NCBI GenBank assembly: GCA_958295675.1 | Contig: OY282360.1 | Location: 658,026 to 722,025 of the forward strand | Source: Minisyncoccota bacterium | GTDB lineage: Bacteria > Patescibacteriota > Minisyncoccia > Phycocordibacterales > JABAAK01 | DNA: 64,000 bases | Reading direction: 5' to 3' | Shown: one piece after another, positions 19,983 through 57,333 of the stretch | How positions within the stretch are numbered: position 1 is the first letter of the stretch | How the letters are laid out: every line of letters starts with the position of its first letter | Notes under the pieces: generated by a model | Told to the model about the DNA's origin: nothing | What the model saw: only the letters and a program-made list of their open reading frames with translations | Database searches by the model: none | Program-made: the position numbers and the translations under genes

Positions 19983-22900
19983 TTAGCGAAATATTTTTCC
20001 CGGCCGCTCAACGAGCAGTACGGATATGTCCATGCCATCAATAATAATCGTCCGTCCGTCCGGAATAGGTTTCGCGCTGTAGATGATTGTGCTTACCCTT
20101 GTTTCCTTCTTTATTGTTTCCTCATATTCCTGTATATGCTTTTGCTGTTCAACAGGAATACAGATGTGCATCTCATGCACCGTTTCAGTAAGCGAAAGAT
20201 TCATTTCCTTGCGTATACTCTGAATGTTACGGACATATTCCCTACTGAACCCTTCGGAACGGAGTTCCGGTGTCAGAATCGTGTCGAGGACAACCTCATC
20301 TTTCGCGCCGGAATTAACAAGAACCTCTTTCACATTCAACTCATCGGCAATGATGGTACGCACCGCGACAGGTATATTTTGCTGAATAGTCACACGCATC
20401 AGCGGCTGCCGCACCTTTATACCCGCTTCCGACCGCTGCTCATGCGCAAGAGAAACAATGCGACGGGCGGTATTCATCGTCATGATACTGCGCGTATTGA
20501 CGGACATACCGCGCGGCCACCGGCACAAATGCACACTCTCCGGAACCAAAACAGAAAACATCTGAAATTTCTGCATACTCAAAAACAGATGCTCCGCATA
20601 AAACGGCGCGACAGGGGCAATACACTTCGCGAATTCAGTCAGCACAAAACGAAGCGTCTCACGCGCATGCGCACCGTCTTTGGTGTCATACCGTATCCTG
20701 TCCCGTGATCGGCGCAGATACCAAACAGATAAATCTTCAACAAACGCGCTGATAGGAGCAACCGCGACATCAAGACGGTAGCTCTCAAATCCCTTCGTGA
20801 TGGCGGCATGCGTTTCAGCAAAGCGGGAAAGAAGATATATATCAAGCGGATGACGGCTTCCCGCGACATGCGGCAAATGCGCATAAGCGGCATAGAAATT
20901 AAAACAGTTGTGCAGCCGCATATACACCTTTTTGTAAATCTCATCAACCTGCTCATCATTAAAATCAAGCGTCTCGCCGCGCATCACCGGAGAACCGAGC
21001 AGATAATGACGGAGCGCATCCGCACCGTACCGATTAACAACATCCATCGGATCGGAATAGTTTTTCAAACGCTTGCTCATTTTCTTGCCGTCCGCGGCGC
21101 GGATAATGCCGGTCGCGACTACCTGCCGGTACGGTGCTCTGCCGAACGCACCCACACCGATAGCGAGCAAACTGTAAAACCAACCGCGTGTTTGATCCAA
21201 TCCTTCGCAGATAAAATCGGCGGGGAATCCTTTATTCCGCGCCGGATTAAAAAGGGGTGTATCCACAAAGGGATAATACTGCGACGCGTACGGCATCGCA
21301 CCCGACTCAAACCAACAGTCAAACACTTCCCTGACATGTCGCGCCGGATTGCCGTCATCATCATACAGAACGACATCATCAATGTACGGTCGATGCAAAT
21401 CCACATCTCCGTCTTCAGTCCGCTTCACCGGCTTATACCGAAGCCGGAATGTGCCGGTATTACTGTTCAGCGGCGAAAAATGCTCTTTTAGGTACGAATA
21501 CCGAAACACACCCAAGGACTCCACTCTGCGCGCGCTCACCAACACCGCCTTGTGCGTAACGACGATAATATGCGCGCCGCTATACTGCTTATCCACAGCG
21601 TCAAGAAACTTGAGCATACGGACATACACATCGTTATATGATTCACCCGAACCTATCTTCTTCCGCATATCCCGATACGCTCCGCTTGCCACTGCCGTAT
21701 CCCGCACATCGGCATACGACCTGCCGTGCATATCAGGCAACTGCATCTCAATGATGAGCGGATCCTCAATAACTTTCGCACCGGTCGCTTTTGCTATATA
21801 ATCCGCCGTCTCCCGCGTCCGCTCAAGCGGCGAGGAAAAGATAACGGTCGGCTTAACATCTTTTAATTCCTCGGCAACCTTCCGCGCCTGCGCTTTGCCA
21901 CTCTCTGTGAGTCCCCATCCGCTGCCGGGTTTGCAGTTAAACACCTTCCGTTCGTTGCTGACCGAATGTCCGTGCCGTACAAATGTGTATGTGTTTCTTG
22001 GACGCATTCTTGCAAACATCTCCGAGAGAGAGCCGATGACAAGATACTGACCTGTCTTCTCAACCTGCCATATCGGCAGTGGCGCGCCCCAAAAACGGCT
22101 CCTTGACACCGCCCACGGCTGCGCATCTTTCAGCCAGTTACCGAATCTTCCGTCACGCACATGCTCCGGCACCCAGCGCACCTTCCTATTCTCGGCGACC
22201 ATTTTATCACGGTACCTGTCCGCGTGCACAAACCATGAATCAGCGGCGTAATTGAGCAGCGGTGTACTGCAACGCCAGCAAACCGGATAGCTGTGTTCAA
22301 TATCTTCACTGTGCAGCAATACACCTTTCTTTCGCAGCGCATCCAGTATCTTGTCATCCGTCTCTTTCGGATTTCCCTGCTCTTTCGGACGCAAACCGGC
22401 GAACGGACCGAGTTTGGAAATGAACACACCATCCTTTGAAACATGGTGGCGAATCGGCAGACCATGCTTCTCGGCGGTTTCCATATCGTCTGAGCCGTAT
22501 GCAGGCGCAAGATGCACGATACCGGTGCCGACTTCGGTGTCTATGTACGGCACATCGTACACACGCCAAATTTTCTCCGATACTCTGTCATCTTTTTCAT
22601 CCGCGTACAAAAAATCAAACGGCGGCAGATACTCTTCACCGATAAAATCAGAACCCTTCTTAGTCGCTGTTATATGTCCGTTTTTAAAAAGATGCGCCGC
22701 ATTGCTATGGACAATGTACCGCTTGCCGTTTTCCTCAACAACCGCATACTCAATATCACGACCGATACCGAGCGCGACATTGCCGAACAATGTCCATGGC
22801 GTGGTTGTCCATGCGACAAAAAAAGTATTTGCATACGCTTTCATCGGAAACAATGTGTATACCGCGGTATCAGTGAGCATTTCATAACTGTCAGCAACTT

Positions 22901-23522
22901 CTGTATTAGAAACTGTTGTTGAACATCTCGGACAAAGATGCAGCGATTTAAATCCCCTGCTTACAAAACCATTCTTATGCAGACGATGAAAGATTGACCA
23001 TACTGACTCCATATACGAAGCACTAAGTGTGCGGTAGTCATTCTCCATATCCACCCAGCGCCCGATACGGGGAATGATCTTCTTCCATGCGTCAGCATAC
23101 TGCAGCACAAATCTACAGATACCCGTATTGAACTTTTCAATGCCATATTTCTCAATATCGCTCTTGGACTTACTGCCGATCTCCTTCTCCATCTCAACTT
23201 CAAGCGGCAACCCATGGCAGTCCCACCCCCACCGGCGACGGACAATATATCCCCGCATAGTCTTGTAGCGCGGAATCGCATCCTTCACCGCGCTCGCCAA
23301 AATATGCCCATAGTGCGGAAGCCCTGTCGCAAACGGCGGTCCGTCATAGAAAATAAAGTGTTTTTTTTTGAAAAACCGACATACAGTACTCCAAAAACTG
23401 CCGGAAATTCCCTCCTCACTCTTCTCAAAAATACGATGTGTTCGCCAAAATGCAAGTATTTTTTCTTCCCGTTCAACAACCGTCTCTCGCAACGGCATAT
23501 CCTTCCTTTCAGTCATATGCAT
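19983..23522 (-). CDS. ileS: Isoleucyl-tRNA synthetase with an inserted histidine-phosphatase (phosphoglycerate-mutase-like) domain
   Basis: HYGH (PHYGHILAS), GWDCHGLP and KMSKRLKN. Residues about 508-705 carry RHGHS..SSPLERTRETA..VTH, not present in canonical IleRS. Confidence 0.9.
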   Translation of the reverse strand: MHMTERKDMPLRETVVEREEKILAFWRTHRIFEKSEEGISGSFWSTVCRFFKKKHFIFYDGPPFATGLPHYGHILASAVKDAIPRYKTMRGYIVRRRWGWDCHGLPLEVEMEKEIGSKSKSDIEKYGIEKFNTGICRFVLQYADAWKKIIPRIGRWVDMENDYRTLSASYMESVWSIFHRLHKNGFVSRGFKSLHLCPRCSTTVSNTEVADSYEMLTDTAVYTLFPMKAYANTFFVAWTTTPWTLFGNVALGIGRDIEYAVVEENGKRYIVHSNAAHLFKNGHITATKKGSDFIGEEYLPPFDFLYADEKDDRVSEKIWRVYDVPYIDTEVGTGIVHLAPAYGSDDMETAEKHGLPIRHHVSKDGVFISKLGPFAGLRPKEQGNPKETDDKILDALRKKGVLLHSEDIEHSYPVCWRCSTPLLNYAADSWFVHADRYRDKMVAENRKVRWVPEHVRDGRFGNWLKDAQPWAVSRSRFWGAPLPIWQVEKTGQYLVIGSLSEMFARMRPRNTYTFVRHGHSVSNERKVFNCKPGSGWGLTESGKAQARKVAEELKDVKPTVIFSSPLERTRETADYIAKATGAKVIEDPLIIEMQLPDMHGRSYADVRDTAVASGAYRDMRKKIGSGESYNDVYVRMLKFLDAVDKQYSGAHIIVVTHKAVLVSARRVESLGVFRYSYLKEHFSPLNSNTGTFRLRYKPVKRTEDGDVDLHRPYIDDVVLYDDDGNPARHVREVFDCWFESGAMPYASQYYPFVDTPLFNPARNKGFPADFICEGLDQTRGWFYSLLAIGVGAFGRAPYRQVVATGIIRAADGKKMSKRLKNYSDPMDVVNRYGADALRHYLLGSPVMRGETLDFNDEQVDEIYKKVYMRLHNCFNFYAAYAHLPHVAGSRHPLDIYLLSRFAETHAAITKGFESYRLDVAVAPISAFVEDLSVWYLRRSRDRIRYDTKDGAHARETLRFVLTEFAKCIAPVAPFYAEHLFLSMQKFQMFSVLVPESVHLCRWPRGMSVNTRSIMTMNTARRIVSLAHEQRSEAGIKVRQPLMRVTIQQNIPVAVRTIIADELNVKEVLVNSGAKDEVVLDTILTPELRSEGFSREYVRNIQSIRKEMNLSLTETVHEMHICIPVEQQKHIQEYEETIKKETRVSTIIYSAKPIPDGRTIIIDGMDISVLLVERPGKIFR

Positions 23523-45295: not shown

Positions 45296-45651
45296 GGGGG
45301 TGTCAGGCTTTGACAGTTGACATGCCCTGTGAATGGAATGCGTGGTAGTGAGAGGTCACTATAATCACCGAAACCTTGCAAATAAACTTGCACAGATGTT
45401 CAACAGAACACCTGCCCTCGCGTACGCATAACAATGCCCGTGAGGCATCCGCAGGATGATTCTCACTAATCCAAACGGATGTAAGATAATGTGAGAAACA
45501 CGGCGTGCTGTACTACGCTTCAAACAGCATACGAAAAGTAAACGAACGAAGCGGTTTTTGGTCTGTGAGCGAACCTATCGCCCACTACGCCACGAAAACA
45601 TTCTTCGCAGTGTCAATATGGACGGGAGTTCAATTCTCCCCACCTCCACCA
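45296..45651 (+). ncRNA. ssrA: tmRNA (ssrA)
   Basis: 5' GGGGGTG pairs with the 3' CACCTCC-A-CCA, including G3-U70. T-arm GGGAGTTCAATTCTCCC. Internal tag ORF ..gca aat aaa ctt gca cag atg ttc aac aga aca cct gcc ctc gcg tac gca taa (ANKLAQMFNRTPALAYA*). Adjacent to smpB. Confidence 0.85.
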
Positions 45652-45751: not shown

Positions 45752-46468
45752 TCAGCAATACTGCTGTAGATGCGATTTAAAAAATGATAGTGCGTTAACT
45801 AAAGATTCTCTTTTCATTGGCTTAAAAAACTCTCCCCTATGAATCGGTCTATCTACTTTTCTATCTCCTTCTAATAAGGTGATTATATTGAGTGTGTAGT
45901 CAAAGTAAGACATAAGGGTGTGGGTGCTGGTGCTACCAAATTTTACCTCTTTTAAAATCTCTGAATAATCGCCACCAAGCTGACTCTCAAGTTGAAAGAG
46001 CACAATCTCCGCATCAGGAGAAATTTCTTTTACAAATGAGCCATCAATTAAAATTCTCTTTATCATCGCGTTTTCTGTGTATGATTTACATTCAATGGCC
46101 ATTACGAGATTACCTCGCACATAAACAGGAACATCTATGTTAAATTTGTACGAATAATCTTTTATGTTTTTTCGTATGTGTTCTGCTATTTCGTTTTCAA
46201 TAGTATCTAAATAATCTTTTTTAAGCGGGACAGTGACAGATCCCTGCTCGGTGCTCAGATCATCAATATTGCCCACCATATCAAACCATGCTCGCTTCAC
46301 AAGACCTCGTGCAAATGCTTCAACAAAAGAACCCTTAATAGAACGCTCTATACCGCCCGTTGCGCGTTTTGTATCCTGGACCTCGGAACCTATTCTCTTA
46401 ACTAATGAGTTATATGCAGCTAATAAATCATCAATGGTTGGAATTTCCGGTAAATCTTCTATATTCAT
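45752..46468 (-). CDS. Putative Type II restriction endonuclease (PD-(D/E)xK)
   Basis: NIDVPVYVRGNLVMAIECKSY. 4 nt downstream of a methyltransferase gene in the same orientation. Confidence 0.5.
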   Translation of the reverse strand: MNIEDLPEIPTIDDLLAAYNSLVKRIGSEVQDTKRATGGIERSIKGSFVEAFARGLVKRAWFDMVGNIDDLSTEQGSVTVPLKKDYLDTIENEIAEHIRKNIKDYSYKFNIDVPVYVRGNLVMAIECKSYTENAMIKRILIDGSFVKEISPDAEIVLFQLESQLGGDYSEILKEVKFGSTSTHTLMSYFDYTLNIITLLEGDRKVDRPIHRGEFFKPMKRESLVNALSFFKSHLQQYC

Positions 46469-46471
46469 ATA

Positions 46472-47647
46472 TTAAAACAACGAGCTTGCTAATCGTTTCT
46501 CCGCAACATTACAATATTCCGTTGATATATCCACACCGAGATACCTTCTATCAAGCATACGAGCAACGCTGGTTGTTGTACCCACACCATTAAAAACATC
46601 CAATATGATGTCATTTTTGAAACTGAAAAGTTTGAGACATCGCGATACAAGATTTTCAGGAAACATTGCAGGGTGCCCATATTCTTTCATATTCCTTTCA
46701 GGTGCAATTGACCACTTCGCAACAACCCACTTTTTAAACTCTTCAGCCGTTATATCAATATCTTCAGTTTTTCCAGAGTGCTTCAAATCACCTTTACAAA
46801 AAACTTCAATAAACTCCCATGTGTATTTCAGATATGGACTACTCGGACTCTTCCAACTACCCCACGCAGTATACTTGCAGTTATAGTTATTTTTTTCCCA
46901 AAGTATTTCCCCTTTCCACAGCATCCCAATATCCAACAAATGTTTAGAGATAATATGATGTGTCGGTATATAATCTGAAAACAGCGGCTGTACATTAATA
47001 ATCATTCTTCCGCCATATTTTAGGACTCGTTTTGTTTCTTCTAAAATTGCAAATAACTGATTGAAATAATCATCCCACTTTTTATCATCTGCACCATTCT
47101 CATATTCAAGTCCGAAATTATACGGCGGTGAGGTAATCATCACATCAATACAATTATTTGGTAACTTCCTGAGTACATCCAAACTATCCGCACATACTAT
47201 TGCATTCTCATATTCAAACGGCAAGATATTTTCTTCTATGCTTTTTTCTGTGTTTCTAATACTGGAGGTTCTTTTTTCCGATTTTTGTTTTCTGTTCTTT
47301 ACCTTTCTCTCTTTATTAAAATCAACATACACTCTTTTCCCACTCTTGAGCCCGTATGATCCGATACTGTTAACCGCCTCCACAAGATCATCTATAGCAC
47401 TGAGAACCTCTTCCTCTCCGTTGTTCGCTTTTACCTCCAGTGCTCTGCTTTTGAACCGTTCAAAATCAAGATTATTCACAAACAGCTTCACCTCATATGA
47501 TCCCATTGGCTCAAAATAAATATGTCTATTAAATTCATCCAAGAAAGATTTGACAACGCGTTTGCTTTTCTCATCAAATTCTTTGGTTGTCTTCAGAGTA
47601 ACCTCCTTATATTCCATATATATAGTATATATCAGAAAATTACACAA
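46472..47647 (-). CDS. Beta-class DNA methyltransferase with an about 150 aa N-terminal extension
   Basis: VMITSPPYNFG (motif IV) and LDVFNGVGTT (motif I). Confidence 0.8.
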   Translation of the reverse strand: MCNFLIYTIYMEYKEVTLKTTKEFDEKSKRVVKSFLDEFNRHIYFEPMGSYEVKLFVNNLDFERFKSRALEVKANNGEEEVLSAIDDLVEAVNSIGSYGLKSGKRVYVDFNKERKVKNRKQKSEKRTSSIRNTEKSIEENILPFEYENAIVCADSLDVLRKLPNNCIDVMITSPPYNFGLEYENGADDKKWDDYFNQLFAILEETKRVLKYGGRMIINVQPLFSDYIPTHHIISKHLLDIGMLWKGEILWEKNNYNCKYTAWGSWKSPSSPYLKYTWEFIEVFCKGDLKHSGKTEDIDITAEEFKKWVVAKWSIAPERNMKEYGHPAMFPENLVSRCLKLFSFKNDIILDVFNGVGTTTSVARMLDRRYLGVDISTEYCNVAEKRLASSLF

Positions 47648-47812
47648 TATGTGTTACTTTCTCACACCTATTTGCTTTTCCCTGCTATGAAGTGGCTTAC
47701 CATGATCTTTTAAAATTTTGTAAGCAACATCTTTAAAGGAGTTCATATATATAATGGGGCAATATATCACCCTATAGTGTAAAAATCTATGAATGAATTC
47801 CCCTAAATTTCT

Positions 47813-48613
47813 TTATAAGGAAAGTAGAGTTTTTATATAAAGAGAGTCATCAAAATTTTCCTGTTTTATTAAGGCAAAATAACCATTATTAATGCCTGCC
47901 CTTTCAAGAACATCTTCAAATTCTCTACTATCCAATCTGCAAATAACTTCAAATAGGTATGGAAAAATGATTGATACGGCGTTTATTCCAGATATCCTGC
48001 GGTGTATAGGAGAAAATATCCCAGTATTGCCTGATTTCGACATGTCAAATTTTTTGTACATTGAAAAAAGGAGATTAATATTTTTCTCAATATCACCAGA
48101 AGATAATTCGCATATTATTTTTTCCCTATACGGTCCAATGTTAATATGAGAAAACTTTTCTGATAAATCAAGTTTCAATATTAAAAATAATATAAATCTT
48201 CTAATCTTTTCTAAATCAATATCATTAATTATCCCATCTCTTAAATTACTATTAAGAAAGTCGCCAATCCTCATTAGGCGCCCATATTCTTCATCATCAG
48301 TTATAATATTAATATCCCCTTTCCCAATATTTTTTATAAATTCGAGAAAATATTTTTCATCTCCAGAAAATTTATTATCACAGTCAGCACAAAAAGTGTC
48401 TTTCATATATGGAAGATTGTTTGATTGAGTATATTTTGTGCTTCCATCTGCCATTATTATAGTTCCCCGTTTATCCTGAGAGTTCGGGTTGTTTTCATCA
48501 ATACCACAAATATATTTCCTGAATGCTTTCGATAATATATGTGCTTTAATGAGGGGTCTTTCTTTCCTACATAAAAAACAAATGCCAAAATCTCCTCTTC
48601 TATTTTTATTCAT
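47813..48613 (-). CDS. Hypothetical protein with an HNH-like CxxC..AHI motif
   Basis: GICFLCRKERPLIKAHILSKAF. Confidence 0.3.
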   Translation of the reverse strand: MNKNRRGDFGICFLCRKERPLIKAHILSKAFRKYICGIDENNPNSQDKRGTIIMADGSTKYTQSNNLPYMKDTFCADCDNKFSGDEKYFLEFIKNIGKGDINIITDDEEYGRLMRIGDFLNSNLRDGIINDIDLEKIRRFILFLILKLDLSEKFSHINIGPYREKIICELSSGDIEKNINLLFSMYKKFDMSKSGNTGIFSPIHRRISGINAVSIIFPYLFEVICRLDSREFEDVLERAGINNGYFALIKQENFDDSLYIKTLLSL

Positions 48614-52869: not shown

Positions 52870-52957
52870 GTGTTGAATACATACAATTATTTTTTTATCA
52901 TACAAGCACAGAACAAAAAGTGTACGAAAGAGATACAAAAAGATATACTATACTCAT

Positions 52958-53031
52958 CTCCTCGTAGCTCAGCTGGATAGAGCAACTCCCTTCTAAGGAG
53001 TAGGTCGCAGGTTCGAATCCTGCCGAGGAGG
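52958..53031 (+). tRNA. tRNA-Arg (anticodon UCU)
   Basis: CTCCTCGTAGCTCAGCTGGATAGAGCAACTCCCTTCTAAGGAGTAGGTCGCAGGTTCGAATCCTGCCGAGGAGG. Confidence 0.85.
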
Positions 53032-53051
53032 CCCGGAGAAATACCGGCATA

Positions 53052-53123
53052 CTCCCCGTAGTTTAACGGATAGAACACAGGCTTCCGGAGCCTGCGATGC
53101 GGGTTCAATTCCTGCCGGGGAGG
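53052..53123 (+). tRNA. tRNA-Arg (anticodon CCG)
   Basis: CTCCCCGTAGTTTAACGGATAGAACACAGGCTTCCGGAGCCTGCGATGCGGGTTCAATTCCTGCCGGGGAGG. Confidence 0.8.
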
Positions 53124-53180
53124 CTTAATGGAGGTGGAAATGACACCTTGCCGTAAGTTTTCCTCGTATACTATGTATGT

Positions 53181-54479
53181 ATGGATACGCAGTATGTAAA
53201 AATCCCGTTTCTGGGTACGGTCTGCGCTAAAACTTCACTAGGTACAGCGATATGTGGTACTCCGTCTACAATAACTGTTTCAAAAGATATCTTACAACCA
53301 AGGAAAAAATACTATTCACTAACAATAGGCGGCGATAGTATGCGACACACCTACAAAGATGGCGAGACCATTCTTGTAGAGAATACCAAAAATGCACAAC
53401 AGGATGATGTGATTATCGCCAGGACACAGGAGGGAGACACCATAAAGAGAATAAAAACTCTCACAGAAAAAAGAATTGTTCTTATAGCCGATAATAAAGA
53501 AACACTGTCATTTCCAAAAAATAAGATGGACATTCTCGGCGTTGTCATTGGCAAGATAGATGTAACAGAACAGGAAAGTGTCAACCTTGTCTCAAAAAAC
53601 ATACTGACTGAAAAATTGCACATAAAAAACAAAATTATCTGCGGTGACACGCTGATAGAAATGAGAAAAATTCCAACCGCAAGTGTTGATGTCATCATTG
53701 CCGATCCACCGTATAACATAGGAAAAGATTTCGGAAACAATAAGGACAAAAAAGATATGGAGGAATATATCGGATGGTGCAAGGTGTGGATTGATGAAGG
53801 ATTGCGGTGTCTTAAACCGGAAGGAACAATGTTTATTTATGGTTTTAGTGAAATACTAGCACACCTTGCAACAAACACACGGGCAAACAAAAGGTGGTTG
53901 GTATGGCACTACACCAACAAAAATGTTGCATCACTAAACTTTTGGCAGCGAAGCCACGAAGGGGTGCTGTGCGTCTGGAAAGAGAAAAAACCAAAATTTT
54001 TCAGAGACGCAATCAGAGAACCGTACTCCGAAACATTCTTGAAAAATTCCGCCGGCAAGGTAAGAAAATCAAAATCCTGCAGATTCAGCAATGGAGAGAG
54101 TACCACGATTTACAAGGCACATTCAAAGGGTGCTCTACCGCGAGATGTCATTAAAACCCCGGCACTTGCCGGAGGAGCAGGAAAATCGGAAAGACATTTC
54201 CTCTGCAAAACCTGTAACAAAGTATATTTGTCAAAAAATCTTGACGAACACAGAACACACACAACTCTGAAGCACCCAACACAAAAACCAAGAGTACTTA
54301 CTGAAAAATTGCTTCATTCCTGCCTCAATAAAAAAGGATTGGTGCTCATTCCTTTTGCTGGATCAGGATCGGAGTGCCTTGTGGCAAAACAACTCGGACA
54401 CGACTTTGTTGGTATAGAAATAAACGAAGAATATATACAATTAGCAAACGGTCTATTCAATAAGAAAATGCCTAAATAG
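53181..54479 (+). CDS. Fusion protein: N-terminal S24 LexA-like peptidase domain plus beta-class DNA methyltransferase (with a CxxC insert)
   Basis: IGGDSMRHTYKDGETILVE..DDVIIARTQEGDTIKRIK (S24 Ser/Lys dyad). VIIADPPYNIG (motif IV). IPFAGSGSE (motif I). CKTCNK. Confidence 0.75.
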   Translation: MDTQYVKIPFLGTVCAKTSLGTAICGTPSTITVSKDILQPRKKYYSLTIGGDSMRHTYKDGETILVENTKNAQQDDVIIARTQEGDTIKRIKTLTEKRIVLIADNKETLSFPKNKMDILGVVIGKIDVTEQESVNLVSKNILTEKLHIKNKIICGDTLIEMRKIPTASVDVIIADPPYNIGKDFGNNKDKKDMEEYIGWCKVWIDEGLRCLKPEGTMFIYGFSEILAHLATNTRANKRWLVWHYTNKNVASLNFWQRSHEGVLCVWKEKKPKFFRDAIREPYSETFLKNSAGKVRKSKSCRFSNGESTTIYKAHSKGALPRDVIKTPALAGGAGKSERHFLCKTCNKVYLSKNLDEHRTHTTLKHPTQKPRVLTEKLLHSCLNKKGLVLIPFAGSGSECLVAKQLGHDFVGIEINEEYIQLANGLFNKKMPK

Positions 54480-55308
54480 CATCAATCTCCTCTTTTTTCT
54501 CACGAAACACTTTCGGAGTAAACACCACAAACCCGTTACCCAACCTCTTCAGATTTTTATTTTCTATAAAATCAAGGTACGGCTTTCTATACTCGCCGTT
54601 CAGTTTCTTCGGTTTTTCAAACACTTCCTGATTCGGCACAGCGTATTCAATATCTATCGACTCACCCTGCAACTGTTGTTTACTTGTCCTCGGTCGGCGC
54701 ACCTCCCTACTCTGTGTGCGTTTTTTAACCTGATAGTTAAGCATGCGTCCTTTATAATGAACTTGTATATCTGCATTCTTTCTATCAAGCTCGGTAGACA
54801 TATTCACCGTACCGGCACCAAACACCTGTTCGGCAACATACCCGGCGTGTATCTGTGTAATGATGCTCGCCCAAGTCCGGTAAATTCTCGCAGGCAGTCC
54901 TCTATAAAAACAATCAGGACATATTGTTGTCTTATCCCGAAACTCCTCTATATCCTGTTCGTATTTTTTACTGTATCGTTTGTAAAATGTATCAAAGTTA
55001 ACATACTCACGCTTATCCCAGTAAATCTCGTACATTAAATCAAGTGCCTGTATATTTCTCGGCAAGTCCATCTCCACGATTTTAATCGGCTGGTACTTTT
55101 TCCTGTACCCAGCCAAATCCACACCCTCAAGGAATGAGTCAAAAGATTGTGTGTCGTTTATTGTATACATACTACTAAAAATATATCTCACACCTTGAGT
55201 TGCGGGTTGCATAGATATAGATAAAGTATAGCAAATAAACAAAATTATGTCTTTGTGTCGAATATCTTGATTTACAGCAAGATGTCTGCTAAAATACAAA
55301 TACAACAA
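54472..55308 (-). CDS. Hypothetical protein convergent with and overlapping the methyltransferase; candidate cognate restriction endonuclease
   Basis: 278 aa. The true start is probably an internal Met (MQPATQ.. or MYTIND..). Contains ICPDCFYRG. No clear nuclease motif. Confidence 0.35.
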   Translation of the reverse strand: MLYLYFSRHLAVNQDIRHKDIILFICYTLSISMQPATQGVRYIFSSMYTINDTQSFDSFLEGVDLAGYRKKYQPIKIVEMDLPRNIQALDLMYEIYWDKREYVNFDTFYKRYSKKYEQDIEEFRDKTTICPDCFYRGLPARIYRTWASIITQIHAGYVAEQVFGAGTVNMSTELDRKNADIQVHYKGRMLNYQVKKRTQSREVRRPRTSKQQLQGESIDIEYAVPNQEVFEKPKKLNGEYRKPYLDFIENKNLKRLGNGFVVFTPKVFREKKEEIDAI

Positions 55309-55534
55309 GTGATAAAATACTTATATATCAGATTCATACCCATACACAGTAATAAACAACAAGCTTGAGCCTGTTTTCCAAAAAATCCAACAGGCTGCAA
55401 AACCAGAAAGATTTAATGCTGCCTTTCTGCAAAAACTTGGTTTCGCCAGCTCAAATTATCGAGCAATCGTACCCCTGTTTAAAAAACTTGGTTTCATTAA
55501 TGAGGATGGGTCCCCCACCGAATATTATGATAGG

Positions 55535-55939
55535 TTGCGCGATGCAACAGACTGGCAATATGTGCTTGGGGAAAGAATAAAAGAATTGTACAAGGATCTC
55601 TACAATATAGACACTGAAATCCATCAAAAGAATCAAGATGAAATAAAGGGGGCTGTTAACCGTGTTACTGGAAAAGATAAAAAAAGTGTTGACAGATATG
55701 TCTTAACTTTCTCATCATTAAGCAATATGGCAAAGTTTGGGGTCTCACCGAAAACAACAAAGGTACCAGAAAGTGCAGCAAACACCAAAGAAAAACAAAA
55801 AAAGGACGAACACTCTGTCAAAGGAAGTTTAGATGGAATCAGTTTAAATCAAAACATCCAAATACAACTACCAATGACCAAAGACACTGCGGTTTACAAT
55901 GCTATCTTCCAGAGCATACGAGAAAATCTGTTGGATTGA
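55535..55939 (+). CDS. Hypothetical protein. The frame is open from 55316 without an in-frame ATG, so the start is uncertain.
   Basis: The conserved-looking upstream peptide ..AAFLQKLGFASSNYRAIVPLFKKLGFINEDGSPTEYYDRL continues in frame into the TTG-start ORF. Confidence 0.35.
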   Translation: MRDATDWQYVLGERIKELYKDLYNIDTEIHQKNQDEIKGAVNRVTGKDKKSVDRYVLTFSSLSNMAKFGVSPKTTKVPESAANTKEKQKKDEHSVKGSLDGISLNQNIQIQLPMTKDTAVYNAIFQSIRENLLD

Positions 55940-55940
55940 T

Positions 55941-56531
55941 ATGAAAAAAACAAACAAAAAGTATATGGATGATCTCAAAAGAATGACTTTCAACGGAATT
56001 CTGGCAATAGAAAGTCTCAATGCTTTATCAAAGAATGGAATTGATATAAGAGTGCTTGAAAAAAAGGAAGAAAGGGAAGAGCAGGAAAATGATTTTAGCC
56101 CAATTTTACTAAATAAAGCAAGAAGTATGAGCAGAGTTTACGAAATGTTTTTCTGTATGGAGAACGCTGCCAGATCACTGATAGAAGAGCGTCTTTCGGA
56201 ACGAATGAACGAAAATTGGTGGGAAACCTGTGTTTCAGAAAACATAAAAAAATCTGTCGAAACCTTAAGAAAGAAAGAAGAAAAAAATAAATACCACACC
56301 CAAAGAAATTTACATCCAATTGGGTACACAATGTTTGGAGATCTTGAAAAAATTATCATCAATAATTGGGAAAATTTTTCCGATATCTTTCCCGAACAAT
56401 ATTGGATATCGTCTCGTTTTAATGATTTAGAATTATCAAGAAATATCATCATGCACACAGGGACACTTCCAGAAACAGAAATAGGAAGAATTGAGGGAAT
56501 AGTTAGAGATTGGATAAACCAAACTGGGTAG
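55941..56531 (+). CDS. HEPN-like (R-N-x3-H) protein
   Basis: ELSRNIIMHTG motif at the C-terminal end of an alpha-helical protein, in a defense-island context. Confidence 0.45.
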   Translation: MKKTNKKYMDDLKRMTFNGILAIESLNALSKNGIDIRVLEKKEEREEQENDFSPILLNKARSMSRVYEMFFCMENAARSLIEERLSERMNENWWETCVSENIKKSVETLRKKEEKNKYHTQRNLHPIGYTMFGDLEKIIINNWENFSDIFPEQYWISSRFNDLELSRNIIMHTGTLPETEIGRIEGIVRDWINQTG

Positions 56532-56865
56532 TTTTATACAAAGCAATTTGTAAGTATTTCCAGTTTTGAATCTTTGCGACCGAAAAGTGCAAAAAAGATA
56601 AAACAGGGAAAACAGAGCGAAACATTCCATATCTCGCGTAAGAGTGAAAAATAGCAGAGTGTTTATGTATACAACTGCTTCGCTTTTTTGAATAGGTTCG
56701 AAACTGCGGGGTGAAGTGACGGTACCCAACCAAACGAACACCCTGTTACTATAGACCGTCCTGCCAGTACCTCCATAACTCCTACAGTACCATGACGAGG
56801 GCACGGGATTGGACGGCGGATTGAAAGGAAAAAGAAGTAAATATATCTACAATCTATACTACCTA

Positions 56866-56965
56866 CTACCGCAAACCCTTCAGTTTCGCCCGCAGTATCG
56901 CAACTTCAAGTGCTTTGTCGGAAGATGCTATCTTTTCCTCAAGCGCGGCAATAAGATGGCGGCGA
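56866..56965. repeat. About 100 bp direct repeat (copy A) encoding the C-terminal RHLIxALEEKIxSSDKxxEVAILRAKLKxLR module
   Basis: About 85% nucleotide identity with 58203-58302. Confidence 0.7.
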
Positions 56966-57333
56966 ACCGCTTCCTTAGCCCGGGCGTATAAAAAATCACC
57001 GGCTAAGAGCGCTTCTTTAATACTCCACTTTTTATGCGCTGTGGTCCGGCCCCGGCGCAACGATGCCTCGTCAATGATATCATCATGTATTAATGACGCC
57101 GCATGAATATATTCCACCGCCAACGCCGCTTGGATGCCAGCTTCCCCGCGCTGTCCCATCAAGCGATAAAAAGTTAAAAGTAACAGAGGCCGAATGTATT
57201 TCCCTTCGCCGCGTAGAATATAGGTCATTCGTTCTTGCAGATCTGGATGACAATCCACCGCCACCAATCGGCACTTAAACTCAGCCATTGTCTCCGCCAC
57301 GACCGCGGTAGGGAAACCGCTTGGCGGTTTCAC
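56866..57333 (-). pseudogene. Truncated polyprenyl diphosphate synthase (N-terminal half with the first DDxxD) fused in frame to a 31 aa repeat-encoded tail
   Basis: ..LAVEYIHAASLIHDDIIDEASLRRGRTTAHKKWSIKEALLAGDFLYARA then RRHLIAALEEKIASSDKALEVAILRAKLKGLR*. The second aspartate-rich motif is absent. Confidence 0.6.

Follow-up and report, generated by a model that had tools for sequence, protein, structure and literature searches.

What would the self-cleaving domain of an SOS repressor be doing at the head of a DNA methyltransferase? The question is raised by an open reading frame (ORF) of 432 residues at positions 53181-54479 (forward strand) of a 64,000-nucleotide stretch of a Minisyncoccota bacterium (contig OY282360.1, positions 658,026 to 722,025), the whole of which we call the window. 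An earlier note, made from the letters alone, had described the product as a LexA-like S24 peptidase domain joined to the methyltransferase of a restriction-modification (R-M) system, and had proposed that RecA- or SOS-triggered self-cleavage couples methylation to DNA damage. Our comparison with its relatives leads to a different answer for this protein. In the reading that we regard as probable, the gene supplies a type II, TaqI-like R-M system with its modification methyltransferase, and the S24 domain is the relic of a fused LexA, most likely kept as a structural or dimerization module, with no SOS control.

The architecture described in the earlier note was borne out. Peptidase_S24 (PF00717) matches residues 27-123 (expectation value (E) 2.2e-17; 63.3 bits against a cutoff of 23.3) and N6_N4_Mtase (PF01555) matches residues 169-423 (E 3.2e-40; 138.9 bits), an assignment as R-M modification enzyme that NCBIfam, the PADLOC MTase_II model and a Foldseek search with the AlphaFold model also support. 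When aligned with 79 family members and E. coli LexA, an N-terminal arm (residues 5-30; 53193-53270) proves homologous to the cleavage-site region of LexA. It is followed by the S24 catalytic-core fold (residues 31-126; 53271-53558), delimited by the Pfam match, structural matches to LexA, its evolutionary rate and a predicted local distance difference test score (pLDDT) of 75-93; then by a poorly conserved linker (residues 127-150; 53559-53630; p-distance 0.54, pLDDT 34-56); and finally by the beta-class methyltransferase domain (53631-54455), defined by the Pfam match, its invariant columns and Foldseek. The two residues named in the note as the catalytic dyad are correctly placed, Ser53 in GDSM (53337-53339) aligning with LexA Ser119 and Lys89 in TIKR (53445-53447) with LexA Lys156; the residue numbering of the E. 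coli LexA reference was verified in the alignment. The AlphaFold model has a mean pLDDT of 72.7 with several disordered loops, and its N-terminal part matches the LexA structures 3k2z, 8trg (LexA on the RecA filament) and 1jhe.

In the methyltransferase domain, DPPY (residues 175-178; 53703-53714) precedes FAGSGSE (residues 392-398; 54354-54374), which is the beta-class motif order that the note had recognized. The closest solved folds are M.BceJIV, M.MboIIA, M.RsrI and CcrM (E 4e-15 to 1e-12); they share the DPPY motif and the permuted motif order with the window protein at 18-27% identity only, and the window protein adds S24 and a finger-like insert. This CKTC...HRTH insert (C342, C345, H357 and H360; finger at 54204-54260) is present and invariant across 20 homologues. 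Because it is predicted as strand-strand-helix with a pLDDT of about 90, it looks more like a C2H2 beta-beta-alpha zinc finger than like the zinc ribbon with which the note had compared it.

The convergent gene, whose overlap with the fusion gene had also been noticed, encodes a TaqI-like type II restriction endonuclease (54472-55212, reverse strand; RE_TaqI E 2e-35; PADLOC REase_II E 1.6e-31), and the overlap measures 8 bp. Since this neighbour is a TaqI-family endonuclease, the two genes constitute a type II R-M pair, and the supposed membership of the methyltransferase in an R-M system is thereby confirmed. The endonuclease likely starts with MQPATQG at 55212, although the mechanical ORF extends to a TTG at 55308; the MQP start is also kept in the related locus L005, whose endonuclease is 78% identical, and identities to the partners at other loci range from 57 to 88%. 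No solved structure matched the endonuclease at the sequence level. A weak promoter-like site for its gene, AAGACA-17-TATACT with a TG element (55225-55253, reverse strand), emerged from a consensus scan and upstream comparison, and this promoter is accompanied neither by a controller (C) protein gene nor by a LexA-type operator. The window contains 40 copies of the TaqI site TCGA where a maximal-order Markov model predicts 188, an observed/expected (O/E) ratio of 0.21 that is the third lowest among the 16 palindromic tetramers, and ratios of 0.18-0.46 are found around homologous systems in five related genomes. This depletion, as indirect evidence, fits a long-resident, active TCGA system, and with the DPPY motif suggesting N6-methyladenine (m6A) as the product, TCGA methylated as m6A is the probable target.

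The origin of the S24 domain becomes apparent from the relatives of the window protein. A search of 5.8 billion proteins returned 12 close homologues (60-89% identity, 378-446 residues) with the same S24-methyltransferase architecture, together with hundreds of relatives of about 505 residues at 48-52% identity in which LexA_DNA_bind (PF01726) precedes S24 and N6_N4_Mtase. Among 185,579 genomes, each representing a single species, 295 encode relatives, nearly all of them Patescibacteria (the Candidate Phyla Radiation, CPR). The window belongs to this phylum too: its PyrG is 100% identical to a protein on a 724.5-kb contig and 76% identical to the PyrG of a 641-kb Candidatus Paceibacterota chromosome, and the best matches that bear a name come from Paceibacterota/Parcubacteria. 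Many of the longer proteins carry the NCBI label 'transcriptional repressor LexA', and against the LexA equivalog TIGR00498, whose cutoff is 110.95, full-length members reach 185-191 bits over model positions 4-201 of 203. They contain the sequence IPLLGxIAAGxPIE, with the Ala-Gly bond in 69 of 69 complete members, as well as the Ser and Lys. On each sequence criterion, then, these proteins qualify as complete LexAs. A TaqI-like endonuclease partner is encoded at about 65 of 80 related loci, and a C-protein gene at about 25 full-length loci. Full-length members such as MCK4355155.1 (P0063) and MFA6503085.1 (P0013) are about 50% identical to the window protein over their shared length, and they have in common with it the C2H2-like insert, the convergent overlapping TaqI-like endonuclease and the phylum; they differ in some 75 additional N-terminal residues, which form the winged helix, and in the Ala-Gly bond that the window copy lacks. 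In literature searches of partial coverage, no description of LexA-methyltransferase fusions was found, and a 2025 review of R-M biology never mentions LexA; this family of Patescibacteria is thus apparently undescribed.

Measured against these complete fusions, the window protein has lost what a LexA switch works with. It resembles LexA, UmuD and lambda CI in fold, in the Ser/Lys dyad and in the first strand 'IPFLG..CA', and, like UmuD, it has a short arm before the core; in contrast to them, it has no DNA-binding domain, Ala-Lys in place of Ala-Gly, and a methyltransferase at its C-terminus. It scores below both the LexA and the UmuD cutoffs of NCBIfam, reaching 40.7 bits on TIGR00498 at model positions 79-198 only, and PF01726 finds no match in it. 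The ORF begins 56 bp past a tRNA gene at about the equivalent of LexA residue 78, and because tRNA-Arg genes sit immediately 5' there is no room for an upstream DNA-binding domain. The cleavage site itself had been overlooked in the earlier note: in IPFLGTVCA-K, Ala16-Lys17 (53226-53231) stands at the register of LexA Ala84-Gly85, so that Lys17 occupies the place of Gly85, which we take to be the position altered in the non-cleavable lexA3 (G85D). The truncated subfamily has K, E, D, T or N at this position in 10 of 10 members, with Gly in none of them against 69 of 69 full-length proteins, whereas the Ala, Ser and Lys are retained in all truncated and full-length members compared. Pro19 and Glu29, family-invariant residues flanking the site, are also changed. 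More broadly, the full-length family has 34 S24-core positions with a conservation of 95% or higher, and the truncated subfamily as a whole keeps only 9-12 of these (22-25 changed; the spread reflects a possible displacement of the alignment by one column at the Lys), compared with 117 of 152 family-invariant positions in the methyltransferase.

These comparisons bear directly on whether the S24 domain of the window protein could still be an active switch, cleaving itself on RecA or at high pH and so altering the activity or stability of the methyltransferase after damage, as had been proposed. The subfamily keeps the dyad without exception, the fold is confidently predicted and the core is under purifying selection, all of which speaks for such a switch. 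Nevertheless, the residue at the scissile Gly is Lys here and K, E, D, T or N across the subfamily, the neighbouring Pro and Glu have changed, only some 16 residues precede the site so that nothing would be released, and the majority of the positions invariant in cleavage-competent relatives are altered. We therefore consider an active switch in this protein unlikely, and this part of the earlier proposal was not upheld. A second way of preserving cleavage would be UmuD-like processing at a new bond, Cys25-Gly26 (53253-53258), in a lengthened loop, where removal of a 25-residue arm would activate or remodel the methyltransferase. UmuD is cleaved at Cys24-Gly25 and loses 24 residues; the Cys (8 of 10 members) and Gly (9 of 10) lie at a subfamily-specific insertion, the loop at residues 19-27 is predicted to be flexible (pLDDT <50), and an NCBIfam UmuD-subfamily model matches with E 4.8e-9, below its cutoff. 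Two members, however, have Tyr-Gly (P0004) and Ser-Thr (P0012) there, the bond is displaced from the canonical register by 9 residues in the downstream direction, close relatedness alone may account for the conservation, and we found no functional rationale for such processing, which we accordingly rate as quite improbable.

The promoters of the full-length genes indicate what the LexA part of the parent may control. Nearly all of these genes are preceded by a sigma-70-like promoter with a pair of repeats within the -35/-10 spacer. The repeat is a pentamer to heptamer whose two copies lie exactly 11 bp apart, for example TTTCTA-N5-TTTCTA or TTCGGT-N5-TTCGGT, and it was matched 60 times in the 120-bp upstream regions versus 21 times in the remaining approximately 1 Mb of retrieved DNA. 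Repeat type and protein covary at one predicted recognition-helix residue, TTCTA repeats accompanying Phe, Tyr or His in 47 of 47 cases and TYCGG repeats accompanying Glu or Gln in 14 of 14, in counts that ignore shared ancestry. Direct-repeat LexA operators have precedents, Patescibacteria included according to a published study (PMC7739468). Just 5' of the -35 element, an exact DnaA-box-like 9-mer, TGTGGATAA/TTATCCACA in either orientation, is present in 54 of 78 loci; it lies at L001:5930-6000 and upstream of most full-length loci (L009-L086), with an upstream density of 4.6 per kb versus 0.021 per kb elsewhere. As this box stays constant whereas the repeat of the operator differs, TGTGGATAA is probably bound by something other than the fused LexA; DnaA, or a coupling to replication, is a possibility, and the box may additionally tie methylation to replication initiation. 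Neither the operator repeat nor the DnaA-like box was found at the endonuclease or C-gene promoters of the family loci, and where a controller gene is present, these promoters carry a typical C-box-like palindrome.

From this arrangement we propose a model for the parent system. The LexA part would repress its own promoter through the two 11-bp-spaced direct repeats between -35 and -10. Upon DNA damage, activated RecA would induce cleavage at Ala-Gly, detaching the DNA-binding domain and leaving the S24-methyltransferase portion intact. The methyltransferase gene would then be derepressed while the endonuclease gene, having no operator, would remain unchanged. Because the operator lies at the methyltransferase gene but not at the endonuclease gene, the ratio of methyltransferase to endonuclease would rise, protecting unmethylated DNA synthesized during repair, and type II systems would in this way have their own equivalent of restriction alleviation. 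A damage-released autorepressor is the most economical model, since cleavage would remove the DNA-binding domain only. The coupling of methylation to DNA damage suggested in the earlier note thus fits the full-length parent family, with its complete LexA and promoter operator, but not the window protein. That cleavage-competent LexA-methyltransferase fusions constitute a phylum-wide control device of Patescibacteria, one that brings about damage-induced alleviation of type II restriction and from which the window protein is an escaped deletion variant, we advance tentatively, as a proposition with nearly as much for it as against it.

The upstream region of the window gene shows the counterpart of the loss in the protein. 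No 11-bp direct repeat lies upstream of the window gene or of four other subfamily genes, and the sole repeat match, at L088, was assigned to the promoter of a divergent neighbour. The exact DnaA-box-like 9-mer is absent from 53125-53180 of the window, and the upstream regions of the truncated subfamily retain only degenerate traces of the upstream box; in the window, the TGTGGATAA box and the direct-repeat operator seem to survive in decayed form as the stretches 'ggtggaaat' and 'gttttcctcg'. A putative -10 hexamer, TATACT (53167-53172, forward strand), was identified by comparing the upstream sequence with that of 68 relatives and 5 subfamily members, and readable -10 elements stand 7-8 nt from the ATG in the window, L005, L087 and L090. 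As the window hexamer is only 8 nt before the ATG, it suggests that the fusion mRNA is leaderless or nearly so. All six truncated loci examined (the window, L005, L087, L088, L089 and L090) have the convergent TaqI-like gene, and no C gene was found in the window or the other five, in contrast to the parent loci, which have the operator and the box and often a C-protein gene. From the operator loss and locus features shared by the truncated subfamily, we conclude that the truncation is, by sequence comparison, a single event in the ancestor of a small Paceibacterota clade that was subsequently retained. Because the DNA-binding domain, the scissile Gly and the operator were lost together, the three appear to form one functional unit in the parent; and because all three are gone, the window copy is most likely free of SOS control and without self-cleavage. 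Two short proteins were rejected as further examples of truncation. L013 (439 residues), a candidate for a second, independent loss of the DNA-binding domain, has a winged helix and an ORF open to the contig edge, and P0118 (440 residues) is probably a short gene call, given that L031, on a 4,764-bp contig of equal length, encodes a 504-residue full-length protein.

If the switch is gone, why has the domain stayed? The S24 core evolves 2.2 times as fast as the methyltransferase domain in the truncated subfamily versus 1.7 times in full-length proteins, with a ratio of about 3 for the linker; judged from these rates, it is kept under somewhat relaxed purifying selection. Because the core is altered and faster, yet still slower than the linker, the function of the domain would seem to have changed without the domain having been abandoned. 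Dimerization is usual in the beta class, as in CcrM and M.BceJIV, and by analogy the S24 core of the window protein is most likely a dimerization or structural module for the methyltransferase. One alternative is that the relic is a targeting or interaction module that docks on RecA filaments or binds another S24/LexA protein, such as the full-length fusion encoded at L088. The domain was kept under selection after its original partner elements had gone, its structural matches include the RecA-filament-bound LexA (8trg), and at L088 a LexA-methyltransferase gene of the full-length type adjoins the truncated one back-to-back. Changes have nonetheless affected many of the surface positions that full-length members conserve, and no adjacent full-length fusion was found in the window or in the other four subfamily loci retrieved, which makes such a role as unlikely as an active switch. 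The relaxed constraint could also be taken to indicate a decaying system, with the fusion gene or the endonuclease inactive and S24 as neutral junk. In favour of this are the absence of both parental regulators (the C protein and the DNA-binding domain of LexA) and the neighbouring DUF5343 gene, which has no canonical start codon. Against decay, both ORFs are intact with all methyltransferase motifs kept, the truncated architecture and its endonuclease partner have been maintained across at least 6 genomes that have diverged to 60-80% identity, the S24 core is more constrained than the linker, and TCGA is strongly depleted; of all the alternatives considered here, decay is the least probable.

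Several points weigh against our reading, beyond the shared ancestry that the operator-helix counts leave aside. Ser53 and Lys89 are invariant in 10 of 10 truncated members, though only 26% of S24-core columns are; as the dyad is invariant and the core changes more slowly than the linker, the core may have a catalytic or binding role beyond scaffolding, and the dyad is a weak hint of residual function. The dimerization role is itself one that we infer from other beta-class enzymes. For the parent, the S24-methyltransferase fragment could instead be degraded after cleavage, in which case methylation would be lowered and self-restriction would follow. The N-terminally incomplete full-length member L013 has Ala-Ser in place of Ala-Gly. 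With regard to TCGA as the target, the specificity is deduced from the endonuclease family and site depletion, and two other palindromes, ACGT (O/E 0.08) and GGCC (0.14), are depleted beyond TCGA. We still favour the relic of a fused LexA, kept as a structural or dimerization module, for the window protein.

The proposed parent mechanism has affinities with two known forms of control. Type II methyltransferases of the SsoII/Ecl18kI/EcoRII/MspI type repress their own genes via an N-terminal helix-turn-helix (PMC3874152). The parent family resembles these autorepressors in its N-terminal DNA-binding domain and in an operator overlapping the methyltransferase promoter, and differs in that its DNA-binding module is an entire self-cleaving LexA, so that damage would be able to undo the parental repression; no such module is left in the window protein. 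Type I restriction alleviation after DNA damage consists in degradation of HsdR by ClpXP (PMC4231737, PMC11109961, PMC12707154). The logic of our model is similar, in that damage shifts the balance away from restriction and spares unmodified repair DNA, whereas the means differ, type I alleviation acting by proteolysis of the restriction subunit and the parent model by a presumed transcriptional derepression of a type II methyltransferase. The joining of methyltransferase autorepression with restriction alleviation through a whole LexA appears to be the new element.

Type II restriction enzymes can kill their host when methylation lags, for example after recombinational repair, and our literature searches, of partial coverage, found no damage-responsive type II safeguard akin to type I restriction alleviation. 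If the model is true, a methyltransferase welded to an SOS repressor would provide one, and would do so for hundreds of small-genome species whose defence depends strongly on R-M. Many 'transcriptional repressor LexA' entries in these phyla are R-M enzymes, which affects reconstructions of SOS regulons. LexA-methyltransferase fusions may also double as the SOS repressor of the cell; no stand-alone lexA was found in the retrieved loci, whose short flanks say nothing about whole genomes. The window copy, having lost domain, Gly and operator together, offers a natural control for which parts form the switch; alone it is a modest curiosity, while the family is of real interest to specialists in R-M and SOS.

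A second family makes use of the same regulatory module. In L088, the truncated gene stands back-to-back with a gene for a 621-residue protein composed of LexA, S24 and an N4-cytosine methyltransferase (L088:5870-7735, reverse strand), which is accompanied by an MvaI/BcnI-type endonuclease (L088:5172-5873). Its promoter has a TAGAA-N6-TAGAA repeat and a TTATCCACA box, as in the first family. This second family is likewise large, with at least 120 clusters sharing 67% or higher identity, and wherever a source is named it is one of the Patescibacteria. The LexA modules of the two families are 49% identical, and their methyltransferase parts are unrelated and permuted; the LexA module with its promoter is thus portable between methyltransferases.

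Other loci contributed individual observations. At four loci without a TaqI-like gene (L058:9296-9910, L043:9340-9993, L077:9339-10148 and L084:6820-7566, all reverse strand), the endonuclease slot is occupied by convergent ORFs of about 204-269 residues with no Pfam or PADLOC match, which are candidates for uncharacterized restriction enzymes. A single chain of 1129 residues at L047:7785-11174 combines LexA_DNA_bind, S24, a beta-class methyltransferase, a gamma-class N6_Mtase and a TaqI_C specificity domain. One full-length member contains an in-frame TGA within the coding region for the winged helix (L070:2450-2560), which could reflect a pseudogene, recoding or a sequencing error. The IMG/VR relatives (L091-L170, many of them labelled GVMAG) come from giant-virus metagenome-assembled genomes and large phage contigs, and their methyltransferase domains are 50-58% identical to that of the window; they are methyltransferase domains without S24, and a viral origin of the fusion was rejected on these grounds.

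The surroundings of the R-M pair in the window agree with their earlier description as an AT-rich islet behind two tRNA-Arg genes with a HEPN-like gene downstream. ARAGORN and the sequence place two tRNA-Arg genes (anticodons TCT and CCG) at 52957-53124 on the forward strand, at the left bound of an islet (53125-56865) whose guanine-plus-cytosine (GC) fraction is 0.384 versus 0.47-0.49 in its flanks. An integration scar was considered and rejected, no direct repeats of the tRNA end being found at the islet flanks. Beyond the endonuclease lie a DUF5343 gene (PDC-M34A; 55316-55939, forward strand), identified by Pfam, PADLOC (E 1e-34) and tblastn against its L001 homologue, and the HEPN-like gene, which matches HEPN_Swt1 (PDC-M34B; 55899-56531, forward strand; Pfam E 2e-11, PADLOC E 4e-65). 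The DUF5343 frame is open and homologous from about 55325, where it reads ATA, with no ATG, GTG or TTG before 55535, and either a non-canonical start or a loss of the start codon could account for this. The two genes make up a candidate two-gene defence module (PADLOC PDC-M34) adjoining the R-M pair, and the same gene pair also flanks the full-length system in L001 and L012. At the right edge, the islet is abutted by an ORF of 155 residues (56866-57333, reverse strand) that resembles only the N-terminal half of polyprenyl synthases, with a DDxxD-type motif, and may have been cut short by insertion of the islet.

Elsewhere in the window, AGCT and CTAG have O/E ratios of about 0.43, and the overall depletion of palindromes suggests several further active or past restriction systems in this genome of approximately 0.7 Mb. 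A second type II R-M pair (45752-48613, reverse strand) lies beside a transfer-messenger RNA (tmRNA) gene. It consists of a beta-class methyltransferase (46472-47647) with an unrelated 146-residue N-terminal extension that has no Pfam match, and an endonuclease (45752-46468; PADLOC REase_II, E 1e-64), with a 266-residue unannotatable ORF upstream. This methyltransferase was rejected as another S24 fusion, for it has no S24 match and its likeness to the window protein is confined to the methyltransferase motifs. The tmRNA (45296-45651) has an ARAGORN-predicted tag peptide, ALAYA, that is unusually short. Finally, the isoleucyl-tRNA synthetase (19983-23522, reverse strand; 1179 residues) has an apparent histidine-phosphatase insert at residues 513-662, between the two halves of the synthetase match, which resembles alpha-ribazole phosphatase and phosphoglycerate mutase.

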